Shown here piece after piece: positions 49,267 through 50,320 of a stretch of 64,000 nucleotides of DNA. The DNA comes from Clostridia bacterium (GTDB lineage Bacteria > Bacillota > Clostridia > Oscillospirales > QAKW01): contig JAFSCX010000047.1 in assembly GCA_017436525.1 (NCBI GenBank), positions 53,198 through 117,197 on the forward strand, in the 5' to 3' direction. Within the stretch, counting starts at the first letter, position 1. Every line of letters starts with the position of its first letter. The notes below the pieces were generated by a model that was not told the DNA's origin, did not search any database, and was given only the letters and a program-made list of their open reading frames with translations. Both the position numbers and the translations under genes were made by a program.

Positions 49267-49593
49267 TTATAAAAGTTCCTTTAATTTATCAAGAAATGCA
49301 TTTTCGCCCCAAGTGTTCAATTTGAAGAAAACCGCTTGGCTTCCTCCGGCTGTTATCGCAGAAAGGTAAATCGGACTATCACCATTTTGAAAGAGTGTTA
49401 TGCTCATGCTGACGCGATTTCCGCCCGCGTAGCTGAATCGTTCAAATACGCGAACACTGCATCTGGCATCACCGCTCTGAAAATCGCTGGACTCTTCAAG
49501 AGAGGCAGAAATACTTCCATTTAATATTCCTGCTTCAATTTTTTGAAGCCAGTGCGAAAAATCACCGTTCAGCGAACATTGTAATTTAGCCAT
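49267..49593 (-). CDS. 108-aa hypothetical protein
   Basis: The ATG at 49593 is preceded by GGAGGA: MAKLQCSLNGDFSHWLQKIEAGILNG ... The promoter TTGATT-17-TATAAT lies upstream. The upstream part of the 176-aa track ORF lacks an RBS. Confidence 0.5.
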   Translation of the reverse strand: MAKLQCSLNGDFSHWLQKIEAGILNGSISASLEESSDFQSGDARCSVRVFERFSYAGGNRVSMSITLFQNGDSPIYLSAITAGGSQAVFFKLNTWGENAFLDKLKELL

Positions 49594-49674
49594 ATGATAT
49601 CCTCCATGTATCTTAATAAAAACTTTTTCGATATTATTATTTTTGATTATTATAGCATAAAAGCGGCGAAAAAT

Positions 49675-49853
49675 CAATGCAAAGCATTGTATGTAATCCG
49701 CAACTTGTTGCGGAATGTAATCCACCGTAGGTGGTATGTAATCAATCTGAAGGAAGAAACATACAAAGCTTACGCTTTGATGACATACCGTTTGCAACGC
49801 AAACGGATTACATACTCGCTCACGCGAGATTACATACCAATCCTTCGGATTGG
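49675..49853. repeat. Mirror-symmetric array of 7 distinct GC-rich hairpins separated by conserved heptamers (ATGTAAT x3, then ATTACAT-type x3)
   Basis: Hairpins: CAATGC/GCATTG 49675-49689, CCGCAA/TTGCGG 49698-49713, CCACC/GGTGG 49722-49734, CAAAGC/GCTTTG 49764-49779, CCGTTTGC/GCAAACGG 49788-49806, CTCGC/GCGAG 49815-49828 and CCAATCC/GGATTGG 49837-49853. Heptamers: ATGTAAT at 49691, 49715 and 49736; ATGACAT at 49780; ATTACAT at 49807 and 49829. Confidence 0.9.
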
Positions 49854-49860
49854 ATAAAAA

Positions 49861-49889
49861 TAAGACAGTCCGAAGACTGTCTTATTTTT
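49861..49889. terminator. Bidirectional terminator abutting the tRNA-Thr 3' end
   Basis: AAGACAGTC-cgaa-GACTGTCTT with T-runs on both strands. Confidence 0.8.
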
Positions 49890-49965
49890 TGGAGCTGCTA
49901 ACCAGATTTGAACTGGTGACCTCATCCTTACCAAGGATGCACTCTACCACCTGAGCTATAGCAGC
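49890..49965 (-). tRNA. tRNA-Thr (anticodon GGT), CCA encoded
   Basis: Sense strand reads GCTGCTATAGCTCAGGTGGTAGAGTG-CATCC-TTGGTAA-GGATG ... CCAGTTCAAATCTGG ... TAGCAGCTCCA. Confidence 0.9.
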
Positions 49966-49968
49966 AAA

Positions 49969-50045
49969 TGGCGACCCGGATGGGGCTCGAACCCACGACC
50001 TCTAGCGTGACAGGCTAGCGTTCTAACCAACTGAACTACCGGGCC
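49969..50045 (-). tRNA. tRNA-Asp (anticodon GTC), CCA encoded
   Basis: Sense strand reads GGCCCGGTAGTTCAGTTGGTTAGAACG-CTAGC-CTGTCAC-GCTAG ... GTGGGTTCGAGCCCCAT ... CCGGGTCGCCA. The promoter is TTTACA (rc 50100-50105)-17-TATAAT (rc 50077-50082). Confidence 0.9.
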
Positions 50046-50154: not shown

Positions 50155-50320
50155 CTGTTCTCTGTGGTATCCTAAATGAGCAAAAAGAAGTAGGATAGAT
50201 TGTTCTGTTCTCACCCTGCGTTATGAAACAGCAGCGGTTAACATGGTTTCACTTGATATTTTCAGGTGTTTTTATGTTTTGAGACGAGCAATTTATTTTG
50301 CTCGTTTTATTATTTTTTCG
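50155..50320 (+). promoter_or_regulatory. infC-rpmI-rplT leader with attenuator terminator (L20-leader type)
   Basis: The promoter is TTGACA (50143-50148)-17-TATCCT, followed by a ~170-nt leader. The leader ends in ACGAGCAA-tttatt-TTGCTCGT + T-run (50283-50320) just before the infC RBS. This matches the known L20 autoregulatory arrangement in Firmicutes, but the Rfam class was not verified. Confidence 0.5.

Follow-up and report, generated by a model that had tools for sequence, protein, structure and literature searches.

Read along its minus strand, one segment of the window (the whole 64,000-nucleotide (nt) stretch of Clostridia bacterium DNA analysed here) carries, in this order, the genes for tRNA-Asp and tRNA-Thr, an intrinsic terminator (T1), an array of short GC-rich hairpins (H1 to H7), a promoter and a gene for a DUF6054 protein of 108 amino acids (aa). 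The array is the subject of this report. An earlier note on this DNA had described it as a mirror-symmetric series of seven hairpins punctuated by ATGTAAT/ATTACAT heptamers, located between the tRNA-Asp/Thr terminator and the promoter of a 108-aa hypothetical gene; hairpins, coordinates, heptamers and placement were all confirmed on the sequence, and the gene was assigned to DUF6054. At one end, H7 directly adjoins the T-run of T1, which is symmetric in sequence and hence formally bidirectional. At the other, H1 overlaps the -35 hexamer of the TTGATT-17-TATAAT promoter, with the array end supplying the -35.

The array (49675-49853) consists of seven different, perfect GC hairpins with stems of 5-8 bp and loops of 2-4 nt, alternating with the linker G(T/A)ATGTAATC, of which there are three copies per strand, one minus-strand copy reading GTATGTCATC. 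The true linker unit is a 9-10-mer, G-N-ATGTAATC, in which the outer G doubles as the last base of one adjoining stem and the outer C as the first base of the other. Linkers are spaced 24, 21, 27 and 22 nt apart, a wider range than the 21-24 nt first given for the heptamers. The centre of the array is asymmetric: it is T-rich on the tRNA-sense strand only, and its plus strand carries CAATCTGAAGG, a partial inverted copy of H7. A chance origin of this arrangement is excluded. Allowing at most one mismatch, the 10-mer matched at 10 places in the window as compared to 2.8 expected, six of the ten within the 150 nt of the array, and the bare ATGTAATC occurred three times outside the array, which is the chance level for the window. 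Folding z-scores ranged from -9 to -10 on either strand, with RNA or DNA parameters.

The earlier note had proposed a genome search for other ATGTAAT-hairpin arrays. A pattern scan for three spaced copies of ATGTAATC, run on one genome per prokaryotic species, matched at least 120 loci; among the matches listed, about 75 were genuine arrays and the remainder unrelated simple tandem repeats. The hosts of the genuine arrays listed were only metagenome-assembled genomes (MAGs) of uncultured Acutalibacteraceae, Oscillospiraceae, 'Eubacteriales' or 'Clostridia' from human and ruminant guts, and several single MAGs held 2-4 array loci. In gut metagenomes containing the organism of the window, contig depth over the array was 10-100x that over the flanking gene, and many short contigs were 80-90% similar to the array; together these are the signature of a repeat.

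We analysed 53 canonical arrays in detail (median 184 nt; cassette lengths range from ~120 to ~220 bp). Their common plan (loci outside the window carry L numbers) starts, on the side away from the tRNA, with AAATCA, H1, three to five units of N-ATGTAATC plus hairpin, and AATCCGAAGG with a purine-rich centre. It continues towards the tRNA with three to four units of hairpin plus GATTACATA, then CCAATCCTTCGGATTGG, which is H7, and ATAAAAA. The two halves have unequal numbers of units, 4+3 being the most frequent combination. The conserved end hairpin, CCAATCCGAAGGATTGG, stands directly behind the terminator, 33-42 nt past the tRNA 3' end; it is identical in 38 of the 53 arrays and shows one compensatory pair (UA 14, GC 3). 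A CAMJDE01 MAG of higher-GC Clostridia offered a variant (L223:60-320, L162:1-190, L232:4470-4580), in which opposed half-arrays are split by a GC-rich insert of ~300 nt with an 18-nt inverted repeat at its borders, a symmetric terminator of its own and no Rfam match.

Rfam matches were lacking over the window array, at E up to 10, as well as in six variant loci and, at gathering score, in 17 more. In the literature, whether searched by sequence or by concept, no description of the array family turned up. It is seemingly an undescribed family of ~180-bp repeat cassettes behind tRNA terminators. A phage or plasmid origin was rejected: BLAST against phage and plasmid collections gave no match, and a pattern scan of viral contigs returned chance hits and tandem repeats only, no arrays.

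The position of the cassette follows a rule. A terminator (stem of at least 6 bp plus T-run) lies beyond the H7 end in 48 of 52 arrays, and a same-strand tRNA, from ten amino-acid types overall, ends 33-42 nt from H7 in 30 of 51. Other upstream genes encode tmRNA (L159) or 5S rRNA (L195), and at L117 a second array stands behind the terminator of a protein gene. At some loci, all that stands upstream of the terminator is the 3' half of a truncated tRNA or a brief ...CCA remnant, with unrelated DNA beyond it (L120, L129, L136, L204, L228, L150, L153, L183, L185, L216). Such remnants resemble a tRNA end that was displaced to the far junction when an element or island integrated into the tRNA. 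On the non-tRNA side, 33 of 41 neighbouring genes are directed away from the array, and the genes on that side are diverse and unrelated in function. A promoter using the H1 TTG plus ATT as its -35 was present in 19 of the 53 arrays, including that of the window, in each case with a spacer of 17 nt; this spacer and the -10 stay conserved between loci whose downstream genes differ. The other arrays (34/53) have no such promoter, and no conserved plus-strand promoter was found in the arrays.

Features of the array, its surroundings in the window and related loci. H, hairpin; L, locus outside the window.
Feature	Position	Strand	Size	Remarks
H1	49675-49689		6 bp	CAATGC-AAA-GCATTG; covariation at helix 1
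H1 flank				minus-strand 3' arm plus ATT gives the -35 hexamer, then ATTTTT
H2	49698-49713		6-7 bp
H3	49722-49734	plus	5 bp	GTA loop; covariation
H4	49764-49779	minus	6 bp	GTAA loop
H5	49788-49806		8 bp	covariation
H6	49815-49828		5 bp	covariation
H7, conserved terminal hairpin	49837-49853		7 bp	CCAATCC-TTC-GGATTGG; loop GAA on minus strand
Linkers, plus strand	49690-49698; 49714-49722; 49735-49743	plus		TATGTAATC; AATGTAATC; TATGTAATC
Linkers, minus-strand copies	49779-49787; 49806-49814 and 49828-49836	minus		as read on plus: GATGACATA; GATTACATA (both)
tRNA-distal half	49690-49743	plus		order TATGTAATC, H2, AATGTAATC, H3, TATGTAATC
Centre	49744-49778	minus		H4, then TATGTTTCTTCCTTCAGATTG, a terminator-like U-rich tract on minus strand
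tRNA-proximal half	49779-49836	minus		order TATGTAATC, H6, TATGTAATC, H5, TATGTCATC; minus-strand loops GTGA and GTT
tRNA-Asp (GTC)	49969-50045	minus		ARAGORN; Rfam tRNA 69 bits; first gene of upstream stable-RNA operon
tRNA-Thr (GGT)	49890-49965	minus		CCA encoded; 3' end 36 nt from H7
Intrinsic terminator T1	49854-49889	minus	15-bp stem	A-run, stem 100% paired, C(UUCG)G loop on tRNA-sense strand, T-run; symmetric terminator 49856-49889
Sigma-70-type promoter	49649-49677	minus		TTGATT-17-TATAAT, TG before -10; serves downstream gene
DUF6054 gene	49267-49593	minus	108 aa	Pfam E 5e-42; downstream neighbour, outside element
Arrays with other linker types	L117:6875-7072, L141:660-732, L169:5479-5683, L173:4440-4514, L175:2523-2609, L183:3983-4047, L228:2737-2827, L119:641-702, L137:174-236, L211:1532-1702			non-A types
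PF05635 genes	L215:4096-4461, L140:1339-1686, L187:4494-4847, L183:1981-2334, L207:4471-4818, L158:633-986, L117:7109-7462, L141:3663-4013, L115:3393-3749, and others

To see what selection keeps, we aligned 18 arrays over six alignable hairpins. Pairing was retained in 96.1% of cells, as compared to 82.1% in shuffles and 27-41% in slid or shifted controls, and doubly changed compensatory cells numbered 83 against 25 expected, a count reached in 0 of 500 shuffles. This shows hairpin pairing to be under selection. Across all arrays, 199 of 334 hairpins are distinct, with separate repertoires in the left and right halves. The linker is near-invariant: A, T, A and T were found at 180 of 180 copies, and G, A and C at 176-178. 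Linker spacing varies continuously from 18 to 27 nt across arrays, without helical phasing.

One fold suggested at the outset, a multi-branched RNA whose left and right heptamers pair, is thermodynamically possible but has found no support. Linker-linker pairs between the halves are invariant and so provide no covariation evidence, and the position-specific linker variant GATGACATA is never compensated. The halves are unequal in unit number, and there are a chimeric array (L114) and one-sided arrays (L125, L126, L134); nor is such a fold reconciled with the lack of G-U tolerance or with the loop rule described next, which flips at the centre.

On the plus strand, G..A loops cap 81 of the 125 hairpins of the left half but 0 of the 93 of the right half, which has T..C instead (p = 1e-27). 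In both halves, the G..A loops are found on whichever strand shows the linker as ATGTAATC, with a change of strand at the centre. Read on the linker strand, 114 of 122 distinct hairpins are closed by a C-G pair, and G..A loops (66/122) fall into 43 GNA, 12 non-GNRA GNNA and 11 GNRA, with no UNCG. The true terminators next door, in contrast, have C(UUCG)G in 12 of 37 cases, as opposed to none in the arrays (p = 5e-9). Wobble pairs tell a similar story: non-Watson-Crick pairs in array stems comprise 13 GT, 17 AC and 14 others on the plus strand, the pattern of unselected noise, whereas terminator stems show 17 G-U against 3 A-C on the tRNA-sense strand.

With a C-G closing pair and a G..A loop of 3-4 nt, the array hairpins conform to the DNA mini-hairpin rule GCGNAGC/GCGNNAGC, and the H7 core, CCGAAGG, is itself a DNA mini-hairpin motif. 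Sequences of the GCGNAGC/GCGNNAGC type form extraordinarily stable mini-hairpins as DNA, their RNA versions being much less stable (PMC13037366, PMC3201870). A precedent exists in the GC hairpins at the targets of diversity-generating retroelements (DGRs), which have a strand-specific GRNA loop, work as DNA and extrude in supercoiled DNA (PMC3240598). The strand flip of the loops, the loop type and the wobble contrast point to the array hairpins being DNA rather than RNA structures.

This bears on the possibility that the array functions as a structured RNA, made by read-through past the tRNA terminator into the gene beyond or as a separate small RNA, shaped as a hairpin train or a multi-branched fold, and serving for processing or decay, as a sponge for proteins or as a leader element. 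Hairpins that covary usually indicate RNA, folding is very stable (z ~-9), read-through from the tRNA promoter could be substantial, and the AU-rich 8-nt linkers resemble sites for RNA-binding proteins or RNases; array sequences also occur in metatranscriptomes (see below). We nevertheless consider a structured RNA unlikely. Beyond the switch of loop strand, the missing UNCG loops alongside many GNA and non-GNRA GNNA loops, and the lack of a G-U excess, the array sits behind a strong terminator with no conserved plus-strand promoter, has no Rfam match at E up to 10, and combines uncompensated linker pairs with unequal and occasionally missing halves.

Termination offers another explanation, in which the array would be a back-up cluster of weak intrinsic terminators for polymerases that escape the tRNA terminator or arrive from the other side. 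Every unit has a GC hairpin and, after it, exactly 8 A/U-rich nt, as many as in a terminator U-tract; the array is always placed behind a terminator; and hairpin clusters have been put forward as termination signals (PMC8355165). In the 53 arrays, the best 10-nt window of the centre holds on average 6.1 T on the tRNA-sense strand as compared to 3.1 on the opposite one, and a scan for terminator-like structures flags H4 and H1. Since the T-rich tracts after H4 and H1 are limited to the tRNA-sense strand, these two hairpins look like extra weak terminators in the tRNA sense. As an account of the whole array, however, termination seems rather improbable to us. It leaves the invariant ATGTAATC unexplained, for which U-runs would serve better, as well as the discrete linker types described below and the absence of G-U pairs and UUCG loops, both of which are present in the adjoining true terminators. 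The plus-facing half, moreover, would have no obvious target, 33 of 41 left neighbours being directed away. Tandem intrinsic terminators share with the array the hairpin plus A/U-rich 8-mer, the location behind a primary terminator and the sense-direction U-tracts; they differ in that the array linker is invariant and not U-rich, in loops and wobble pairs, and in that half of the units are reversed.

An invariant motif of 8-9 bp is typical of a protein site, and the window array abuts a -35, as do the other promoter-bearing arrays in the same register (19/53). Both would be expected of an operator or iteron array in which a transcription factor binds the double-stranded 9-mers and regulates the adjacent promoter; the earlier note had suggested such an array, with roughly two-turn spacing. 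The continuous 18-27-nt spacing does not agree with this, and the intervening segments are selected for self-complementarity and carry strand-specific loops. A duplex-binding protein would have no need of covarying palindromic spacers. Such a promoter is lacking in 34 of 53 arrays, downstream genes are unrelated, and the rest of the window has no scatter of single 8-mer sites. We therefore give the operator reading hardly any credence.

How the arrays evolve became apparent from a very close relative (L234/L235), in which the DUF6054 protein is 96% identical, the neighbour genes are the same, and the promoter -10 and 5' untranslated region are ~90% identical. At the site equivalent to window 49650-49800 (minus strand; positions 1-140 of each locus), it carries a different array, with the linker AATATCACT / AGTGATATT and all hairpins different, among them gaagccGTAggcttc, ttcacGAAgtgaa and ctgtgcGTAgcacag. 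Homology between the window and L234/L235 begins inside the -35/-10 promoter spacer. Absence or non-conservation of the array in close relatives with the same flanking genes had been named as a possible refutation; an array does stand at the same flanks, yet it is of a different type, so that this refutation applies in part.

A motif-free scan for hairpin trains brought up further linker types in genomes that also hold the ATGTAATC type (type A): B, TATATCATC / GATGATATA; C, AGTGATATT / AATATCACT; and D, TATGGAATC / GATTCCATA. Arrays of these types again lie beside tRNA terminators. On the G..A-loop strand, all types are covered by the consensus N-A-T-[GA]-[TG]-[AC]-A-[TC]-[CT]. Types are mixed within one half-array at L114 and L138, and terminator hairpin families are common to loci with different tRNAs. 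At L158:340-560, the distal half-array is enlarged by tandem identical units (GATTACATA-caaggcttacgcctt repeated), which shows duplication by slippage. From the array swap in the close relative, the mixed types, the shared terminators and the L158 duplication, we conclude on comparative grounds that the cassettes evolve as whole terminator-array(-promoter) units, exchanged by recombination.

Exchange at a fixed site could also betray a selfish relic that resembles a miniature inverted-repeat transposable element (MITE) and has no host function, with transposase-binding repeats at both ends and terminators or tRNA 3' flanks as its targets. Two opposed blocks of three to five direct repeats call to mind Tn7- or Mu-type ends that have been fused, and the element keeps a constant orientation and distance to the tRNA. 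In close relatives, one and the same site is taken by different element types, and the outward-facing -35 is known from many insertion sequences. We judge this improbable. No target-site duplication is visible at the boundaries, and the terminator seems to travel with the array. Where near-identical copies would be expected of a MITE or of transposon ends, copies within a genome are highly diverged in their hairpins, yet under compensatory selection; no transposase or integrase is associated with the 76 array loci whose surroundings were searched.

Clustering of all open reading frames within ~8 kb of 76 array loci returned a single real recurrent neighbour family, PF05635, a four-helix-bundle protein of 116-131 aa (E ~1e-21) encoded at 14 of the 76 loci. 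Pfam names it '23S rRNA intervening sequence protein'; it resembles Avd, the accessory protein of DGRs (PMC10053308). The gene typically comes right after the array, behind the array-derived promoter, with varying upstream tRNAs, and its products are 77-90% identical between species. Except at L117, it is not flanked by arrays on both sides. A 22-aa remnant of such a protein follows the type D array of L211. No reverse transcriptase, transposase, integrase/recombinase or cas-like gene was recurrent around the 76 loci. The same holds for the Y1 transposase-like family of repetitive extragenic palindrome (REP)-associated tyrosine transposases (RAYTs), for which only the ~8-kb surroundings of these loci were searched. 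DUF6054 was rejected as a partner of the array, as nine homologous loci in other organisms lack one, making it a neighbour only. The PF05635 linkage suggests, as a speculative extension to which we attach a low likelihood, that the arrays are a new class of extruded DNA mini-hairpin cis-element and a platform for stand-alone Avd-like PF05635 proteins. Linker types would match PF05635 paralogues, and the elements would mark or insulate the 3' boundaries of stable-RNA operons or prime or restart synthesis there. If so, both the arrays and a very widespread protein family of unknown role would gain a function.

Small DNA hairpins of this kind are also known as start sites. Like the arrays, the complementary-strand origin of phage G4, ssiA and ssiB of plasmid RSF1010 and the promoters of the phage N4 virion polymerase place C-G-closed GNA/GNNA mini-hairpins by a conserved single-stranded stretch. 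ssiA holds the CCGAAGG of the H7 core, ssiA and ssiB lie on opposite strands, and N4 promoter hairpins have 5-bp stems with 3-nt GGA or GAA loops (PMC13037366). By this analogy, the array could be a single-strand initiation signal or hairpin promoter, used by a primase, a primase-polymerase or a hairpin-dependent RNA polymerase for outward synthesis, for instance in replication restart behind tRNA genes. In each half, we reason, the G..A-loop strand would be the template for outward synthesis, and the site lies behind the most heavily transcribed genes. The case is pure analogy, however, and we regard it as quite improbable. No matching enzyme is encoded near the arrays at the 76 loci. While the known signals are single phage or plasmid sites with known enzymes, the arrays are chromosomal, have no copies in the phage and plasmid collections or viral contigs searched, and repeat three to five redundant units per side, which is foreign to known initiation signals.

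The reading we tentatively favour, short of calling it probable, is that the cassette is an intergenic element similar to REPs and bacterial interspersed mosaic elements (BIMEs), with DNA hairpins read by a protein and acting as a boundary module whose function we infer. The C-G-closed GNA/GNNA mini-hairpins would extrude from negatively supercoiled or transiently single-stranded DNA, and a trans-acting protein, for which PF05635 is the only candidate we can offer, would read the single-stranded or flanking linker beside them. The cassette may then separate an RNA gene under very heavy transcription from the gene that follows, as a boundary that takes up or signals torsional stress. H4 and H1, each with its U-tract, may add two terminator-like signals against read-through in the tRNA sense, and the downstream promoter may receive its -35 hexamer from the cassette, as is the case in the window. 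It would spread, or be homogenised, as a whole by recombination.

A REP/BIME-like element was among the three readings of the earlier note, and is the closest of them. The arrays share with the REPs and BIMEs of Enterobacteria and Pseudomonas an extragenic, multi-copy, terminator-associated occurrence at 3' ends of transcription units, and a composition of short GC-rich palindromes that occur in clusters, in either orientation, beside a conserved motif. REPs and BIMEs are, moreover, thought to be active at the DNA and RNA level (gyrase binding, mRNA 3' protection, attenuation). The likeness ends where the palindromes are compared: those of REPs and BIMEs (20-40 nt) are near-identical within a family, whereas array hairpins differ around a fixed linker and only H7 is conserved. 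The GT(A/G)G 5' of the REP palindrome (GTAG) is absent, the array motif N-ATGTAATC being 3' of the hairpin on the G..A-loop strand. REP/BIME orientation alternates, while the arrays form two opposed blocks at a fixed 33-42 nt from the tRNA end, in Firmicutes hosts; and, as stated, no RAYT recurs near the 76 loci.

Several observations weigh against the favoured reading. The decision for DNA over RNA rests on sequence statistics, and its wobble component is modest (p = 0.06 with the tRNA-sense strand as reference, 0.016 with the GNA strand). With 5-8 bp, the stems are on the short side for extruding out of a duplex. Metatranscriptomes do contain contigs with arrays, all unstranded and from complex communities. 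One bovine contig of 1825 nt, with a mean depth of 101, runs from a downstream gene through an L169-like array (L169:416-847) to H7, which also speaks for a structured RNA. Some arrays are thus transcribed, with the unstranded contigs leaving room for read-through or DNA carry-over. No trans-acting protein was identified: PF05635 adjoins only ~18% of array loci, and the window has no PF05635 gene. The presence of several linker types per genome, even per half-array, is awkward for a single rigid recognition protein. Lastly, three other tRNA loci within the window lack arrays, so that the cassette is not required at every tRNA gene.

Comparison with other known systems yielded partial likenesses. 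The DGR target hairpin is again a GC stem in which structure matters over sequence, with a strand-specific G..A (GRNA) loop (PMC3240598), and the only gene family linked to the arrays is the Avd-like PF05635, Avd being a DGR protein (PMC10053308). DGRs, however, have a single hairpin beside a variable repeat, a reverse transcriptase and a template repeat, none of which occur at the arrays, where stems are shorter (5-8 bp), loops mostly 3 nt and hairpins six to nine in number with a fixed linker. With CRISPR, the arrays have in common a constant, array-specific repeat, of discrete types, that alternates with variable inserts. As the earlier note had held, they are not CRISPR-like: CRISPR repeats of 23-50 nt and spacers of ~26-50 nt run in one orientation and come with cas genes, as opposed to a 9-nt linker and 10-18-nt inserts in two orientations, without a recurrent cas-like gene. 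The variable parts of the arrays, unlike CRISPR spacers, are self-complementary and conserved between species. Core sites of integron attC elements (RYYYAAC / GTTRRRY) are absent from the array sequences, and no recombinase recurs. Because it corresponds to none of REP/BIME, CRISPR, iteron, attC, DGR or an Rfam family, we file the cassette under interspersed extragenic palindromic repeats. It would be structurally new among these, and there is a real chance that it is a categorically new thing.

Should the DNA reading be correct, Acutalibacteraceae and Oscillospiraceae of the gut, which are abundant and uncultured, would label their tRNA operon ends by means of a dedicated, selectable DNA-structure cassette, written in a bacterial sequence-plus-shape code that sets an invariant 8-mer beside mini-hairpins of free sequence. 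It would be a rare comparative case for functional chromosomal DNA hairpins over RNA structure, and would offer a concrete, testable ligand for orphan Avd-like PF05635 proteins. In practical terms, the cassettes break metagenome assemblies, and their terminator and promoter parts are possible insulators for engineering these organisms.

The surroundings of the array yielded some further observations. The DUF6054 gene is ~80% identical across many gut Clostridia in quite different neighbourhoods (L001-L009, L236-L241), including a run of small open reading frames (L236-L238) and a site beside a serine recombinase (L239); these varied settings suggest that the gene is itself mobile or cassette-like. 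At L150:723-794, ~3 kb from the array, lies a Gut-1 RNA (RF01706, 53.5 bits). GC skew hints that the minus strand is perhaps leading, with the tRNAs co-directional with replication, a weak signal that we did not use. On the plus strand, window positions 50182-50319 match the ribosomal protein L20 leader RF00558 weakly (31.6 bits, under the gathering score of 58.7). This stretch precedes infC-rpmI-rplT, contains two terminator-like hairpins at 50250-50309, and is probably a divergent L20 leader or attenuator.

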